Below, in pieces: positions 652 through 40,026 of a stretch of DNA of 40,026 nt. Position 1 is the first letter of the stretch. Each line of letters opens with the position of its first letter. The position numbers and the translations under genes were made by a program. The notes under the pieces were generated by a model. It ran no database searches and was not told where the DNA came from. It worked only from the letters and a program-made list of their open reading frames with translations. The stretch is from a virus. The DNA lies in the IMG/VR virus record IMGVR_UViG_3300016644_000071, positions 1 to 40,026 of that record. One strand, written 5' to 3'.

Positions 652-1299
652 ATGAGTCTACAGATTACAAACAATACCAATAAAGCACAAGAGACTTTTT
701 TAAAACAGCTGAAAGGATTAGCTCTCGCCCGTGACATTTTAACCGCTAAAAATTTGAATAACAAAGCGAATTGTGGTATGATAGCTTCCAAATCTACTTG
801 CGAGTCATCCATGAACAAAAGAGTTATTTTGCCCAATGAGGCGATACAGATACTTTCTAATCTGGAAGCCTTAAAAGAAGCGGGAGTACGTTATTTTCAA
901 AGAAATAGCGGCAAAACTTTACCTAGCAATATAACTACAGTCCCTAAATTTCATGAGGAAAAACAGGAAAGTATAGAGCTATCCGACTCTGCTAAGGAAA
1001 CGTTTGCGCGGATCAGCTCTAGAGCAAGACTTGCTTTTATAGAGGAGCAGTTGGAGCGGGCTATGATTTACAATATAGATCATGAATCCTACGGCGATGA
1101 TTACTATAAGCTAATGCAGGACATTGATAAATACGAGTATTTGCTTGAGAAAGCACAGAAGCTTGGCATTTATTGGGATATTTCCGAGTATGATCCAATA
1201 GCTTTAGAGCAGGAAATAGAGGAGGCAGATCATGCTGCTTATACCGAGAGAATGGATGTACGCTTTTACTTTAGTTCAACAAGAGGAGTAGAGGTTTAA
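652..1299 (+). CDS. hypothetical protein (215 aa)
   Basis: ORF preceded by GGAGG about 8 nt upstream of the ATG. Abuts the next ORF. No motif recognised. Confidence 0.65.
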   Translation: MSLQITNNTNKAQETFLKQLKGLALARDILTAKNLNNKANCGMIASKSTCESSMNKRVILPNEAIQILSNLEALKEAGVRYFQRNSGKTLPSNITTVPKFHEEKQESIELSDSAKETFARISSRARLAFIEEQLERAMIYNIDHESYGDDYYKLMQDIDKYEYLLEKAQKLGIYWDISEYDPIALEQEIEEADHAAYTERMDVRFYFSSTRGVEV

Positions 1300-4924: not shown

Positions 4925-5608
4925 ATGGACTATCAAAAACCTTGCCAGTATTCAATAAGATTAATAGATAGGTTGAAATCACTGGATACTAAAAATGTAT
5001 TGGATTTTGATTTGATTAATAAAGCTATCTACTGGGCTAAGAAGTATCACGGCGACCAGAAGAGAAAGAGCGGTGAGGCGTATTACACACATCCCTTAGA
5101 GGTAGCTTATATGATTTCTGATTATAAGCTAAAAACTGACGTAATCGTTGCTTCTATCTTGCATGATATTATTGAGGATACACCAGTAACGGCAGGGATG
5201 ATACTTGATAATTTTAACTGGAGAATAGCTGAAATGGTTGACATGCTTACTCGTGATAGACCAGATGGAAATAAGCTAAGTGTAGAGCAGATATTGAATA
5301 ATGCTTATGACCTAAAAGACAAAGAGGTTTTACTCATAAAGTTAATTGATAGATTGCATAATATACAGACTATAGGAAGCATAGCACCTGAAAAACAGAA
5401 AAAAATAGCTCAGGAGACTTTACAAGATATAATTAGCTTAACAACTATTTTTCAGGATTTAAACTTAGAAATAGAGCTTAATACAAAAAGTCTTACCATA
5501 TTATACGGAAAGGAAATTGCCGATCAGATGATTAAAAAAAGATATAATATTTTTTCTATTTCCGATAGTTACCAACTGCCACTTCCAACTTTTCAAAATG
5601 AAATATAG
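4925..5608 (+). CDS. RelA/SpoT-family HD hydrolase domain protein, no synthetase domain (small alarmone hydrolase-like)
   Basis: YYTHPLEVA, ASILHDIIEDT (HD) and LIKLIDRLHNIQT (compare SpoT ..ADRLHNMRT). 227 aa. Confidence 0.8.
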   Translation: MDYQKPCQYSIRLIDRLKSLDTKNVLDFDLINKAIYWAKKYHGDQKRKSGEAYYTHPLEVAYMISDYKLKTDVIVASILHDIIEDTPVTAGMILDNFNWRIAEMVDMLTRDRPDGNKLSVEQILNNAYDLKDKEVLLIKLIDRLHNIQTIGSIAPEKQKKIAQETLQDIISLTTIFQDLNLEIELNTKSLTILYGKEIADQMIKKRYNIFSISDSYQLPLPTFQNEI

Positions 5609-20350: not shown

Positions 20351-22162
20351 TTATTCTTTTTGATTATTTTGTGGCTTTTCTATTTTTTGTTCTCTTCCTT
20401 GCCCCTGCATCATTTGTATAAACGCCTTGTTTAAAGCATAACTATCAGATTCAGTGAAACCTAATTTTTTTAAGAATAGCGGCTCTGATAAAATAAAAGC
20501 AGGATTAGGACTATTAAGCAATGCTTCAAATTTGGCAGCTTCTTCTTCATGGGAAGTAGCGAAATTTGGAGCGAAATCAGCAAAGATTTCAAAATTAATA
20601 GTTGATATTTCATCGCTTAAATATCCAGTATTAAATTTATTATCCTTATAGTAATTAAAAGCATATTGTAAGTTCTTAATACCTCTGATTGTATCAAGAA
20701 TTAGTTGCCCCTCGGAAAACAACATATGTTCATAAGTTGCATGTAAAGGATTTTGAGTTCTAGCAGCATTGACGGCTCTTGCCTGAATAGCAACGCCGCT
20801 TACCGCGTTAGTCTGTTCTCCTTTTAGTTCATCAAACAACTGTGTTCTTTGTTCGAACTCCAGATCAATTCTAGTTAGTGTTCTTTCTAAAAACGGCAAT
20901 AATGTTTCAGAATTAATTAATTGTACTTGATGAGGGTTTTTAGTAAAAATCATTCCATCACGTCTATTAAGTTCTCCTCGGAGTATTGGTCGCATTTTTT
21001 CTAGGTTTACGTTATCCTCATCTATAATCAGGTATTTTGAATTAAGACCATGAATAGTTTTAGTCCATACATAATTTAGACATGTAGAAAGAGGAATAAG
21101 TCCATCAACTACGCCATAAGGAATACTTAAATAATTTCTCTTCAGACATAAAGGTATTAGTGGAAAATGTTTTTGGTTAGGTATCTGTCCGTCAATAGGT
21201 CCATGTTCTAAAAGCACATCAGAGCAAAATACACCTTTCCAAATTTGTGTACCCTCTAATTCTTTCAAACTCGAGCCATCTACTTTTCTACTTTCTGCTA
21301 CTTCTTTATCAAAAGTGGAAAAGTATTGCTCAGTAACAACACCATCAGGGGTTTCAGGAGGGAAAGCAACTATTGCCTCATAGTATTTAACGTTCTTTTT
21401 ATAATATACTTCAACAATCCTTGCTGACCTACCAAGTACCCATAATTCTTCTAATCCGTCCCCATGATTTAGATCAGAATAAGGAATATAATCATCTCTT
21501 ATTGCTCCTGTTCCACCGCTTACAAACTCTCTTGTGGAATTAGTACCAGTAGGCTTACCAATTAAATTATCAAAATATTCTGCATATTTAGGATAGCGTT
21601 TTTTTAGTTTTGTTCCATTAATAAAATAACTACGACAAACAAACTGTGAGTCTTCCATACGAGCGGATTGGTCATCTGGATCAAAATACACTTCTCTTGG
21701 GTCTACATAATCATAGAAAAAAGTGCATGTGTTATCTGGTTCATAGCCAAAATGAGACCAGCCAAGTCCTCCTATTAAAGCATCAGTATATTTTTGAGTG
21801 GATTTATTTTGAAAATCATTTTGCGCCTGAATAACATATAGCATGTTATTTAAGTATTCAGCTATCAAATCATGTTTTGATAAAGATGTAGTAGCTTTAT
21901 AAGCTATCCTTTTTCTTGCTGCTATCTGCAAAGAAACATAAGTAGTAACTATTGGCTCTACCCTATTAACAACAAAAGGCATAGCACCAACATCAGCAAA
22001 CTCTTTTTTTAATTCCTCATTCCATTGATCACCATAATAAAACTTAAGGTTTTCATCATATTTCAACCGCCATTGTTTACGTATTTCTGAATTGGCCGAA
22101 TAATAGAAATAGTCTTTTAATTCCTGTAATACTTTTGCCTTAGCTGGGGTTAAATTTATCAT
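20351..22162 (-). CDS. portal protein
   Basis: 603 aa. N-terminal FYYGDQWNEE...PFVVNRVEPIV pattern is typical of podovirus portals. Lies upstream of the scaffold and capsid genes. Confidence 0.75.
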   Translation of the reverse strand: MINLTPAKAKVLQELKDYFYYSANSEIRKQWRLKYDENLKFYYGDQWNEELKKEFADVGAMPFVVNRVEPIVTTYVSLQIAARKRIAYKATTSLSKHDLIAEYLNNMLYVIQAQNDFQNKSTQKYTDALIGGLGWSHFGYEPDNTCTFFYDYVDPREVYFDPDDQSARMEDSQFVCRSYFINGTKLKKRYPKYAEYFDNLIGKPTGTNSTREFVSGGTGAIRDDYIPYSDLNHGDGLEELWVLGRSARIVEVYYKKNVKYYEAIVAFPPETPDGVVTEQYFSTFDKEVAESRKVDGSSLKELEGTQIWKGVFCSDVLLEHGPIDGQIPNQKHFPLIPLCLKRNYLSIPYGVVDGLIPLSTCLNYVWTKTIHGLNSKYLIIDEDNVNLEKMRPILRGELNRRDGMIFTKNPHQVQLINSETLLPFLERTLTRIDLEFEQRTQLFDELKGEQTNAVSGVAIQARAVNAARTQNPLHATYEHMLFSEGQLILDTIRGIKNLQYAFNYYKDNKFNTGYLSDEISTINFEIFADFAPNFATSHEEEAAKFEALLNSPNPAFILSEPLFLKKLGFTESDSYALNKAFIQMMQGQGREQKIEKPQNNQKE

Positions 22163-22197
22163 TTGTGCAAGATTCTTATTTTAGTTTTAAACTAGTT

Positions 22198-22781: not shown

Positions 22782-22997
22782 TTAAACTAATTGTTTATTA
22801 AGAATCTCAAGATTATCTGTAATCAATTTTATATCAGCAATTACCATAGCTTTTCTTTCTGGAATGGCTAAAGCTGGATCATCAGACCAATATAAAGAAC
22901 CATCGCTATATAAAGCGTTAGTGTATTTAACAATTAATTGTAATATCTGTATATTATTATTCATAGGTGATACTCGCAAATAGTTACTTTGATGCAA
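22782..22997 (-). CDS. hypothetical protein (71 aa)
   Basis: ORF in the late operon, downstream of the giant fibre gene. Confidence 0.5.
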   Translation of the reverse strand: MHQSNYLRVSPMNNNIQILQLIVKYTNALYSDGSLYWSDDPALAIPERKAMVIADIKLITDNLEILNKQLV

Positions 22998-37279: not shown

Positions 37280-37412
37280 TTTTTTCTCTTAAAATTAAAT
37301 TTAATAATGTTTCTAAATCCTCCCAGAAAACTCCGTGGATTAGTGCCTGATCTCCTATAGTCGTCATCCTCTTTAACCTTTCAGCTATTGTTCTAATTTC
37401 CTCTATTTGCAT
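37272..37412 (-). CDS. possible 46-aa protein (below the ORF-track cutoff)
   Basis: My translation is MQIEEIRTIAERLKRMTTIGDQALIHGVFWEDLETLLNLILREKSE. It bridges the 113-nt gap and overlaps both neighbours. Confidence 0.3.
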   Translation of the reverse strand: MQIEEIRTIAERLKRMTTIGDQALIHGVFWEDLETLLNLILREKSE

Positions 37413-37995
37413 AATAATCCCCCGCCGGTATAATGTTCCAGATATTGGCAATATAAGCCTTCCCCTCTCTTCTTTTTACCTTACCTTTAAAAGCTACCGG
37501 ATCACCTCTCTCCATGTTTTTTAGAGCAGTAAAGTTGGCGTCGTTTTCTTTCAGATCACAAAAAGCGTATTTAAAATTAAGTGTGTCTGCCAAGTTGTAT
37601 ACATCCTTAAAACTGGCAATCTTTGATACTGTATTATTTGATAAAATTTGAGTGTCAATTTGGCAAAACTTCCCGAAGAAAGTCATGTTGTCCTCTGACT
37701 GAGGCTCTAATACCTGAACGAATAGAAATTTCCCCCCTCCTCCAATTGGATAAGGGCTATCAACGCTTAAACCGCGATAATCTTTTCTAATTAAATGTTT
37801 GTCTTCTAAACGACTTAGATACTTTGTTAAAGTAGATTTAGGAATGTCATATTTTTCCGACCAATCTTCTACTTTAAGAAGAAAAAACCCGTCAGGATCA
37901 GGAGTTTCAAGACGCAGTGCTATCCACAATAGCCTTTCGCCAATCTCAACGTTGTAATTATTTAATTCGGTTAGTAAATTCTGATTTATTTTCAT
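37393..37995 (-). CDS. winged-HTH DNA-binding protein (200 aa from the trimmed start)
   Basis: WSEKYDIPKSTLTKYLSRLEDKHLIRKDY is HTH plus wing. The start is trimmed to MKINQ (37995) because 38016-38044 reads as a promoter and the extra 20 aa look non-native. Confidence 0.45.
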   Translation of the reverse strand: MKINQNLLTELNNYNVEIGERLLWIALRLETPDPDGFFLLKVEDWSEKYDIPKSTLTKYLSRLEDKHLIRKDYRGLSVDSPYPIGGGGKFLFVQVLEPQSEDNMTFFGKFCQIDTQILSNNTVSKIASFKDVYNLADTLNFKYAFCDLKENDANFTALKNMERGDPVAFKGKVKRREGKAYIANIWNIIPAGDYYANRGN

Positions 37996-38015
37996 GCTCT
38001 TTTTATAAAAGTCTA

Positions 38016-38044
38016 TTGACATCCATAAAAAGAACTGATACTCT
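38016..38044 (+). promoter_or_regulatory. candidate rightward promoter: TTGACA, 17-nt spacer, TACTCT
   Basis: -35 at 38016-38021 and -10 at 38039-38044. Points into the 720-bp ORF-free region. Confidence 0.35.
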
Positions 38045-38101
38045 ATAACTATCAACGAGTTCTAGCTATAGAAACAAATATATCTGTTTCCTTAGTTTTT
38101 T

Positions 38102-38152
38102 GTTCCTGCTAAGGTTTCATTTACTCGCAAGGTTCTTTACCTTGGTAGGGGC
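38102..38152 (+). repeat. hairpin H1: GTTCCTGCTAAGGT-(23 nt, loop contains GCAAGGTT)-ACCTTGGTAGGGGC
   Basis: 14 bp including 4 G:U. Preceded by a T-run and by the small hairpin GAAACA-(8 nt)-TGTTTC (38071-38090). Shares the 17-mer TTTTTTGTTCCTGCTAA with H2. Confidence 0.7.
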
Positions 38153-38256
38153 TCCTGTTGGTAATTAAAAAGTCGTTTAAAACATAAAAAACGGTTCCAA
38201 GGTTTTATTTATATTCAGCTGCCCAGCATCACAATAAATAAAATTTTACAAAATAT

Positions 38257-38290
38257 GCTCCTCAGTTTTTACTGGGGAGCTATTTTTTTT
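38257..38290 (+). terminator. canonical rho-independent terminator on the plus strand
   Basis: GCTCCTCAG-(6 nt)-CTGGGGAGC, 9 bp with one G:U, followed by TATTTTTTTT. In the minus-strand RNA the G:U becomes an A-C mismatch and there is no U-tail. Confidence 0.7.
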
Positions 38291-38344
38291 GTTCCTGCTA
38301 ATAATCTCAAAAACATGCAAGGTTTTAAAATTATTAGTAGGAAC
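38291..38344 (+). repeat. hairpin H2: GTTCCTGCTAATAAT-(24 nt, loop contains GCAAGGTT)-ATTATTAGTAGGAAC
   Basis: 15 bp with one G:U, at the same stem position as in H1. The distal stem differs from H1 through compensatory changes. Confidence 0.7.
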
Positions 38345-38775
38345 ACCACTTACACCTTTAGTTATATTAGTATAACCTTATCAAACCCATAGTATAGATT
38401 ATGTATAATCCATACTACCTTTTAACCCCTTACACTCCATAGGTTTTTAAGAGTTTATTTTTTACTTTTTTTACTCCTATTTAATATTATGGAAAATAAT
38501 CTAGTATCCAATAATTCTTAATCCCTTTTTATTCGCTAGGAATCCATGCAAGTAAATATACAGATAATCTACAAACCAATTTAATTTTTATAGATATCAA
38601 ATATTTTCTATGTTTTAGCGTAGCATAAAATAAAACCACACGCAATAGCTATTTCTTAAAAATCATACTAAAAAATCATTATTATTAAGATTTTTAGTTA
38701 CCTTATACGTTATTAACACAACTAAAAGTTAGATTTATAAAAATATTAATAACAAAAGGTTATCCCCTACCCTGT

Positions 38776-39081
38776 CTAATCCTTTATTTCGGGATGTATA
38801 GAAAGGTAATAATCTCTCAGAGGAATACTAGCGGCAGATAATATTTCATCCAGATTATACCCTTTGGCAAAAGCTGCCTGTTTTAAAGGAATAAAAATAT
38901 TATCATCTCTAAGTTTTTTCATTAAAAAATCAGACATTTCTTGTACATCATATTTTGTACGTAATCTATACTCATCTAAATGTTTGCAAAGTTCATCTTT
39001 AATAAGATCAAATGTTTTACTAAATTCTATATCTTTTAAAATTTGTTCTGCATAAGGAGTTAGTGATAACATTTCTAGCAC
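38776..39081 (-). CDS. hypothetical protein (101 aa)
   Basis: Third ORF of the leftward early operon. Confidence 0.55.
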   Translation of the reverse strand: MLEMLSLTPYAEQILKDIEFSKTFDLIKDELCKHLDEYRLRTKYDVQEMSDFLMKKLRDDNIFIPLKQAAFAKGYNLDEILSAASIPLRDYYLSIHPEIKD

Positions 39082-39082
39082 C

Positions 39083-39364
39083 CTACTCTGTTTTATCTTT
39101 ATTTAACATCTTCCATATTTGCGGTATTCCAACAATTCCTAAAGAGCTAAAACATCCAGCTCCAAATATTTGAATATTTTTAAACCACTCAAAAATTTCT
39201 TTATTCCCTTGGGCAATAAAATAAAACATTCCCACTAATACAACACATATCAATATTGTTATACATATTATGGCAGTTATTTTTACATTTTTGCTATCTA
39301 GCTCTTTTCTAACGTTATCCAAATCTTTCTTGGCTTCATTAAACAGTTGTTCGTATTTTGCCAT
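39083..39364 (-). CDS. small membrane protein (93 aa, two hydrophobic segments)
   Basis: ITAIICITILICVVLVGMFYFIA and IFGAGCFSSLGIVGI. Function unknown. Confidence 0.55.
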   Translation of the reverse strand: MAKYEQLFNEAKKDLDNVRKELDSKNVKITAIICITILICVVLVGMFYFIAQGNKEIFEWFKNIQIFGAGCFSSLGIVGIPQIWKMLNKDKTE

Positions 39365-40004: not shown

Positions 40005-40026
40005 ACCTATATAATTATCAAAACTT
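40005..40026. repeat. terminal direct repeat, copy 2
   Basis: Identical to 1-22. Confidence 0.9.

Follow-up and report, generated by a model that had tools for sequence, protein, structure and literature searches.

The question raised by the right-hand part of the phage genome in IMG/VR record IMGVR_UViG_3300016644_000071 (positions 1 to 40,026; this whole 40,026-nucleotide stretch is referred to here as the window) is what purpose is served by a rightward promoter, an intrinsic terminator and two related hairpins, H1 and H2, within a 780 base pair (bp) non-coding region whose flanking genes, one of them annotated as a replication initiator (Rep), are both on the minus strand. An initial annotation proposed that a structured plus-strand RNA may be encoded here, and the sequence features on which it drew are all present, position for position. 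Comparison with related phages strengthens this proposal, as the unit has its own promoter and terminator, its helices covary, and its wobble pairs suit the plus strand only. The comparative evidence thus confirms the region as a real, conserved gene for a small RNA with a predicted fold. As to function, we lean towards a base-pairing regulatory RNA that would repress the packaging genes and would also be antisense to leftward transcripts running toward Rep; transcription of the RNA, its pairing with mRNA leaders, and the direction of its effect are what we infer from the sequence.

The unit from promoter to terminator is conserved in about 25 distinct relatives, found in metagenomes, in IMG/VR, and in the Megaira polyxenophila phage MAnkyphage_25.80 (OP381185.1; MAnkyphage below), which is the only DNA relative in the phage collection and has 67% identity spanning the Rep gene and the left part of the RNA locus. 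Other relatives are designated by L numbers where they have to be told apart. The components of the locus in the window are as follows.

38016-38044, plus strand: small-RNA promoter, TTGACA (38016-21), 17 nucleotides (nt), TACTCT (38039-44)
38045-38290, plus strand: predicted small RNA of about 240 nt, probably starting near 38050 and ending in the U-run at 38283-38290
38046-38057, plus strand: 5' strand of helix P1, partner of 38156-38167
38064-38101, plus strand: P2 hairpin, arms 38064-38076 and 38085-38097, followed by a U-run
38102-38152, plus strand: H1, a 14-bp stem including four G-U pairs, with a 23-nt loop
38156-38167, plus strand: 3' strand of helix P1
38173-38194, plus strand: P4 hairpin, variable in sequence and length among relatives
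38199-38247, plus strand: P5, a long A/U-rich stem (UUUUAUUY...RAAUAAAA) with a small GCU/AGC tip helix
38250-38290, plus strand: intrinsic terminator, core stem 38257-38280, U-run 38283-38290
38291-38351, plus strand: H2, a hairpin (38291-38344) with a conserved tail ACCACTT; an optional second H module beyond the terminator

A gap of 20 nt separates the promoter from the start codon of Rep (37995, minus strand), and the promoter is directed away from Rep. Its -10 hexamer, TACTCT, agrees with the consensus at three of six positions, which is why it was not listed by a consensus scanner, and the terminator (38257-38290 in the initial annotation) is the sole terminator-like match on the plus strand within 37300-39200, one such match being no more than shuffled sequence yields (0.8). 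Given these scanner and shuffle results, the promoter and terminator alone are not above chance; what does exceed chance is the exact 17-mer repeat (38096-38112 and 38285-38301) together with both long hairpins (z = -4.3 and -7.8). Among the relatives, TTGACA is invariant in all distinct members at about 20 nt from the Rep ATG, and it is followed throughout, at a spacing of 17 nt, by TAnnnT in the forms TACTCT, TACCCT, TAGACT, TAATGT, TAACGT, TAAAGT, or TAATCT. In the relatives with enough sequence a hairpin with a U-run is located 245-285 nt past the promoter, and their predicted RNAs are of this length. The position of the terminator is conserved, and its stem covaries (five pairs with five double changes each), the stem sequence differing between subgroups while pairing is retained. 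In some relatives (e.g. L074) the terminator is flanked by both A-runs and T-runs and could act bidirectionally. No open reading frame (ORF) of at least 25 amino acids is present in the ORF list at 38049-38254 on either strand, and the middle part of the RNA has length differences among relatives that are not multiples of three.

In the predicted fold the long-range helix P1 is followed by P2 and its U-run, H1, a variable hairpin, the A/U-rich P5 with its tip helix, and the terminator, with P1, P2 and H1 forming a three-way junction closed by P1. Relatives folded one at a time adopt the same architecture with the exception of MAnkyphage, whose lowest-energy fold has an alternative 5' pairing. 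For the window RNA the predicted folding energy is -66.7 kcal/mol (z = -6.4) on the plus strand and -51.9 kcal/mol (z = -2.7) on the minus strand. The stem-loops with T-runs that had been noted ahead of each of the two hairpins are present, and the first of them (38064-38101) is helix P2 of the junction. H1, drawn in the initial annotation with four G-U pairs that fail on the minus strand, folds on the plus strand only: its energy there is -19.7 kcal/mol (z = -4.3), and on the minus strand the hairpin is not formed (-8.0 kcal/mol, z = -0.9). A related octamer CCAAGGTT at 38196-38203, to which attention had also been drawn, is not kept even in relatives whose Rep proteins are 99% identical (in L077 it reads CAAAAGTT).

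Preservation of the pairing in the homologous regions of related phages had been named as a test of the structure, and the pairing is preserved. In an alignment of 24 sequences fitted to the covariance model, 86.9% of cells are paired, compared with 34-55% when the partners are slid, and the covariation score of 0.165 is exceeded by none of 500 shuffles; a hand-annotated MAFFT alignment gives 84.6% as against 36-57%. H1 has 95-98% of cells paired over the 24 relatives, with the compensatory pairs UA13/CG7 and CG17/UA2. P1 has 80% of cells paired, and its changes are mostly one-sided, passing through G-U pairs. Near-fixed wobbles are found at two positions of H1 (U-G in 18-19 of 24) and at two of P1 (GU in 15 and UG in 14 of 24); since these would be A-C mismatches on the opposite strand, the fold is plus-strand-specific. 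P2 is conserved rather in sequence, its loop and 3' strand holding AT(T/A)ATCTGTT(T)CCYTAG, and its pairing differs in the MAnkyphage subgroup (78-84% paired). In P5, RNAalifold pairs 209-217 with 249-257, with CG7/UA5 covariation, and the tip helix has GC/CG swaps.

The relatives were identified by several routes. The Rep protein has ten homologue clusters, all metagenomic and at 53-99% identity, whose contigs were reoriented to the window before comparison, and a pattern search with the H1 loop returned 17 metagenome, 13 IMG/VR, and 1 genome stretches, of which ten are chance matches (nine in FtsH-like coding sequence, plus L093) and the rest are true; the distinct 5' domains number 29 in total. 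A search by covariance model had been suggested at the outset for H1 and H2. The model made here (R1), of the relatives' P2 and H1 domains, detects a single full copy in each phage (73-150 bits), the window copy being at 38049-38185 with 117.8 bits, and a search with R1 of about 810 kb of other phage DNA found nothing. A 15-mer scan of IMG/VR gave 61 matches, 60 of them by chance. With a looser gapped pattern at least 120 stretches were recovered, and none of the 76 tested fits the covariance model, so no relatives with a changed loop were found among them. A search of reference genomes with the Rep protein also found nothing; the sole DNA-pattern match in reference genomes (L100, DAOQYW010000034.1) is a 35.7-kb contig of a 'Bacteroidales' metagenome-assembled genome, which is probably a mis-binned phage contig, as its RNA region is identical to that of the IMG/VR phage contigs L023 and L083. 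The Rfam search that had been advised was carried out with Rfam 15: no family has a match anywhere in the window at the gathering threshold, and at E values up to 10 only terminator-like noise is seen in the region 37950-38800 (PyrR, 31 bits against a cut-off of 54).

H1 and H2 had been described as twin hairpins, and the evidence supports their being true paralogues, with the H2 copy weaker. The 17-mer common to both is exact, both loops contain GCAAGGTT, and the model derived from the relatives' P2 and H1 domains only also matches the terminator plus H2, at 20-42 bits; in the window this match is at 38244-38347, with 27.9 bits over model positions 11-107. A module consisting of a hairpin, a U-run and an H hairpin has thus been tandemly duplicated. 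H2 is present in single copy in the window group and in L065, L086, L066, L070, L023, L085, L087, L095, and L098, is doubled in L072, and is absent from MAnkyphage, L069, L090, L092, L096, L101, L110, and L074. In the window it has 15 bp including one G-U pair and folds on either strand. Among 12 copies in the relatives the lower stem covaries heavily and the apical YGCAAG is always kept, while a mini-stem of 3-5 bp below the tip also covaries (AUACU/AGUAU, GAUCU/AGAUU, AAUCU/GGAUU, AAAAC/GUUUU). Pairs in H2 were counted by our own script because the MAFFT alignment mis-registers two H2 copies, and the intact stems contain 17 G-U pairs and just 2 of A-C, a balance in favour of the plus strand even though the window H2 folds on both. 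Within one phage the 5' arms of H1 and H2 are alike, both having CTGCT in the window group and, in several others, CTACT; gene conversion or a shared constraint could account for this. In L095 and L098 the H2 loop, like the H1 loop generally, has the form UCGCAAGAUUUAAAC, which resembles what we take to be the '900 tetraloop' of helix 27 in alphaproteobacterial 16S ribosomal RNA, GGUCGCAAGAUUAAAAC; as both are C(GCAA)G hairpins, the likeness may be a coincidence.

A clue as to function comes from the H1 loop, in which TACTCGCAAGGTT (38122-38134) is invariant in all relatives amid variable stems and flanks; the extended core, TACTCGCAAGGTTCTT (38122-38137), is altered in one relative only (L064). 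The mRNA strand of the MAnkyphage terminase has a loop complement, CCUUGCGAG, 7 nt upstream of its annotated start, and following this match the terminase and portal genes of the relatives were collected. Perfect loop complements of 9-12 nt are present in 15 of 21 distinct terminase upstream regions, as against a mean of 0.22 in a control in which the loop was shuffled 300 times; they are positioned 10-15 nt before the start codon and 8-20 nt past a TATAAT box. For the portal gene, 7 of 19 upstream regions are perfectly complementary to the loop over 11-13 nt, up to a point 4 nt short of the ATG, and variants with one G-U pair (AAGAAUCUUGC) occur in the window, in MAnkyphage, and in the L146 type. 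The terminase leaders are of several types, AAAGAACCUUGC, AGAACCUUGCGA, AACCUUGCG, and ACCUUGCGAG, which match different overlapping parts of the loop (compare AAAGAACCUUGC with CCUUGCGAG); ACCUUGCGAG is also the form seen in terminase leaders of more distant relatives such as IMGVR_UViG_3300005987_000005 and 3300027760_000003. One 38.6-kb IMG/VR contig (L110, L122, L169) carries the RNA, a terminase site and a portal site together, each site 12 nt and perfect. The target leaders are predicted to be unstructured, and in MAnkyphage the motif CTTGCGAG has five extra copies, compared with about 0.35 expected, of which four are on the sense strand of the local genes. Four candidate targets were identified in the window.

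30056-30064, minus strand: candidate target 1, AACCUUaCG, part of the 5' leader of terminase, with the ATG (30044) 11 nt further on
22167-22177, minus strand: candidate target 2, AAGAAUCUUGC, 4 nt before the portal ATG (22162), 11 bp including one G-U
22971-22980, minus strand: candidate target 3, UUUGCGAGUA, 6 nt before the ATG of a 60-amino-acid ORF (22782-22964)
797-805, plus strand: candidate target 4, CUUGCGAGU / CUUGCGAG, within a 215-amino-acid ORF (652-1299)

Candidate target 1 is downstream of TTGCTT-17-TATAAT (30105-30077, minus strand), and the MAnkyphage orthologue of candidate target 3 reads UUUGCGAG. Around candidate target 4 (780-813) there is a -10-like box, TGTGGTATGAT, followed by CTTGCGAG and a conserved internal Met codon (811), and the nucleotide motif is conserved in five relatives despite variable flanking codons. 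Two further leads were considered and set aside: the start of an HD-domain phosphohydrolase gene (4935-4950, codons 4-9) is complementary at 14 of 16 nt but is near chance (0.31 expected) and absent from MAnkyphage, and a whole-genome ranking of targets by duplex energy proved too permissive.

Three observations touch on these sites. The terminase proteins of the window, L114 and L115 are identical, and their 90-nt upstream regions differ solely in the 9-nt motif, by two substitutions, the versions being AACCTTaCG, AACCTTGCG, and AAtCTTGCG; these may be escape-type variants. Positions 780-813 in ORF 652-1299 may be an internal promoter and the start of a shorter protein. In MAnkyphage (L113) an intergenic hairpin at 21367-21400 has the motif and its complement as its two arms, TATTCGCAAGGTATTTTTTACATATCCTTGCGAGATAAT.

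As the invariant H1 loop matches the start regions of DNA-packaging genes, the RNA probably switches these genes off by base pairing. Rightward transcription would begin at the sigma-70-type promoter, back-to-back with the start of the Rep gene, and end at the intrinsic terminator, and the 16-18-nt loop UACUCGCAAGGUUCUU at the tip of H1 would serve as the seed. The seed would pair with a motif (core CCUUGC) directly before the start codons of the terminase and portal mRNAs, whose 5' leaders are short, and probably with a few other mRNAs. Such pairing would cover the ribosome landing site, making repression the likely outcome, and it may either block ribosome access or destabilise the mRNA, in either case restraining the late genes and those for DNA packaging. 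As the RNA is encoded opposite Rep, it is perfectly antisense to leftward transcripts entering Rep from upstream, and it could damp Rep expression too. H2 would be a duplicated seed-bearing module, contained only in read-through transcripts and presenting a second GCAAG loop. A bolder extension, which we think unlikely, is that the RNA is a packaging lock acting between phages: made constantly by a resident genome in obligate intracellular bacteria, it would silence the terminase and portal mRNAs of the resident and of incoming relatives by kissing-loop contact, conferring superinfection immunity. Point changes in the target motif would then be escape variants, and extra H2 modules would be counter-moves that add seeds.

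Several observations weigh against repression of packaging genes by the seed. The terminase site of the window itself carries a G-to-A change that leaves 6+2 nt complementary, and distant relatives collected through their terminase and portal genes (L133, L141, L144, L154, L156, L161-166) have no portal or terminase motif. Whole-genome scans by duplex energy are unselective, giving many matches at -13 to -19 kcal/mol. The H1 loop never varies, so that covariation of loop and target, which would be the decisive comparative sign of pairing, is not seen. Part of the loop may form a CGCAA-capped mini-stem, which would have to be opened for long pairing, and H2, being past the terminator, is included in the RNA only upon read-through. 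Finally, relative to predicted promoters the target motif falls at about +1 to +20, a placement that is also compatible with a DNA operator.

This last point bears on an alternative in which the motif, GCAAGGTTCTT/AAGAACCTTGC, is the operator of a phage regulator, just downstream of several promoters: the sites at the terminase and portal genes, at the internal promoter, and in the Rep leader would all be bound by protein, and the loop copies in H1 and H2 would be further operators. The motif is indeed 8-20 nt past -10-like boxes at several loci, it is over-represented in MAnkyphage, and the phage encodes predicted transcription regulators. It is, however, without dyad symmetry, and in the relatives' terminase and portal sites, as in four of the five copies that are extra in MAnkyphage, it is oriented with local transcription. 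Moreover, the copy in the RNA gene is in the loop of a covarying stem that tolerates only plus-strand wobbles, for which a site in duplex DNA has no need, and it is bracketed by a conserved promoter and terminator. The initial suggestion of repeated protein-binding DNA sites is in keeping with the closeness to predicted transcription starts but leaves the covarying stems, the wobble asymmetry and the sense-strand bias unexplained, and we regard an operator as distinctly improbable. Still less probable is that the region is an origin of replication or packaging site in which the hairpins are single-strand structures or cruciforms beside an initiator gene, with a role in initiation or as recognition sites for Rep or terminase. 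It does adjoin the initiator gene, in a 780-bp non-coding region rich in inverted repeats, and the Rep annotation is itself weak; but iteron-like direct repeats were not found in it, a conserved promoter, terminator and P1 helix are unexpected for an origin, and the fold has a strong strand asymmetry.

Two other explanations accept an RNA and confine it to action in cis. A countertranscript in the style of plasmid copy control would regulate only the Rep mRNA that it overlaps, H1 kissing its own complement and causing attenuation or a translation block, in which case the terminase and portal matches are secondary or unrelated. This is possible but not, in our view, likely. It is favoured by a promoter on the strand opposite Rep, 20 nt away from its ATG, and by the transcription of Rep itself: no consistent candidate for a conserved Rep promoter emerged from the RNA gene, and since the stretch from the terminator to the ATG contains no convincing one, transcripts of Rep probably run through the RNA gene in full, perhaps from a weak candidate leftward promoter (TTAACA-16-TAAATT) about 500 nt upstream, in the conserved right block described below. 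A terminator that could be bidirectional in some relatives also fits. Left without explanation are loop complements of 9-13 nt that many relatives conserve at two unlinked late-gene leaders, and an invariant loop would be unneeded, since in cis-antisense pairing a change in one strand is a change in the other; that the RNA overlaps the leader of the Rep mRNA is, in addition, putative. Antitermination of the nut/put type, in which the elements would act in cis on RNA polymerase of a leftward early operon, had been put forward in the initial annotation and is hardly tenable. Hairpins with conserved loops do adjoin terminators, and H2 folds equally well on the minus strand, but a leftward transcript could not form H1, the hairpins of the plus strand come after the terminators rather than before them, no boxA-like element is conserved in the transcribed region, and H2 is missing from many relatives. 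The repressive base-pairing RNA thus remains the account that we prefer.

The genomic setting is as follows. The window ends are identical over 22 nt (1-22 = 40005-40026), and the window is therefore a circular contig representing the complete genome, about 40,004 bp, of a MAnkyphage-like phage, and a tRNA/tmRNA scan found none. The non-coding region that contains the RNA gene is bordered by two genes.

37393-37995, minus strand: replication-initiator (Rep) gene, start codon at 37995; annotation taken from MAnkyphage and weak (PHROG 428 match, E = 9e-4)
38776-39081, minus strand: small gene at the other border of the non-coding region

In relatives L078, L080, L081, and L082, whose Rep is 99% identical, a 260-amino-acid ankyrin-repeat gene that the window lacks is situated between Rep and a 46-amino-acid ORF. 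The HD-domain phosphohydrolase gene mentioned above (4925-5608, plus strand; PHROG 990, E = 6e-28) is accessory and is absent from MAnkyphage. Within the non-coding region, 38535-38640 is a conserved non-coding block (the right block) common to L001, L066, L070, L074, and others; in relatives it comprises AATCGCAAGAACCTAGCAAGTAAATAACAGATAATC...TAATTTACAGAGTATCAAACTTTGTTAAAC and then a GCGTAGC/GCTACGC hairpin directly past the stop of the upstream gene. Read on the minus strand, it contains the candidate promoter TTAACA-16-TAAATT followed by GATTATCTGTT, which is identical to the P2 loop of the small RNA, and by CTTGCTAGGTTCTTGCGATT, which includes the CUUGCG target core. The AAGAACC part of the block has diverged in the window subgroup, and pairing between the right block and the H1 loop was for this reason rejected as a generally essential interaction. 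Two further conserved non-coding blocks, at 38389-38417 and 38486-38500, are positioned between the right block and H2: a palindromic hairpin, TAGTATAGATTATGTATAATCCATACTA, and TATTATGGAAAATAA, possibly a -10 region of the plus strand. Where relatives lack H2, the second of these blocks is directly 3' of the terminator.

Hardly any work exists on the phages of Megaira and other Rickettsiales endosymbionts, and these bacteria are hard to grow or engineer. A conserved small RNA with a seed and predicted targets offers a concrete regulatory circuit that is amenable to tests outside the host, and the covariance model is fully specific on the sequences tested. If our reading is true, this would be among the few phage small RNAs shown to control structural or packaging genes in trans, and it would provide both a new RNA family for databases and a metagenome marker for this phage group.

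The known RNAs that it calls to mind differ from it in instructive ways. The C4 RNA of P1 and P7 (with the N15-type CB RNA) and the P4 CI RNA are small structured phage RNAs that silence a key operon, and their exposed loops pair with sites at or near the ribosome-binding sites of phage mRNAs. The complementarity of the H1 loop to the terminase and portal leaders suggests a similar way of working, not membership of the family: there is no sequence or structure homology (Rfam 15 gives no match, and none of the C4 family at E up to 10 in 37950-38800), the RNA has its own promoter and terminator and is not cut from a leader, it is about three times longer with a three-way junction, and the leaders it is predicted to target belong to terminase and portal rather than to an antirepressor or early operon. 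The rep countertranscripts of plasmids (R1 CopA, pT181 RNAI, pIP501 RNAIII, and IncB/IncI RNAI) are likewise encoded opposite rep and directly upstream, with a stem-loop that presents a recognition loop and an end at an intrinsic terminator, but the loop here is invariant and matches unlinked genes in trans, the overlap with the Rep mRNA is putative, and no Rfam countertranscript model matches. Lambda OOP is also a short RNA from a promoter at the upstream edge of a replication-initiator gene (O in lambda) and runs opposite the early operon, antisense to the gene before the initiator; it differs in being 77 nt long, in acting only in cis on the cII mRNA, and in having neither a conserved multi-helix fold nor a trans seed. 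DicF and IsrK, small RNAs of enterobacterial prophages, similarly use a short seed that pairs at the translation-initiation regions of several mRNAs, but they are Hfq-dependent and mostly act on host genes or on one phage gene only. Rickettsiales, the hosts here, are not known to possess Hfq. The position of the present seed, in a hairpin loop, suggests contact of the kissing-loop type. Two other classes were considered and rejected: lambda nut or HK022 put elements, as H1 forms on the plus strand only and each H hairpin comes after a terminator-like hairpin, and the phi29-type pRNA, for which there is no Rfam match, the P2 and H1 loops are not mutually complementary, and the phage has a conventional terminase. 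None of the compared families that have an Rfam model takes in this RNA, and it further differs from known families in its size, its fold, its own promoter, and its predicted targets. It is thus a new RNA family of an already known type; by analogy it would work like the C4 and CI immunity RNAs of P1/P7 and P4 and the rep countertranscripts, from a position that recalls lambda OOP.

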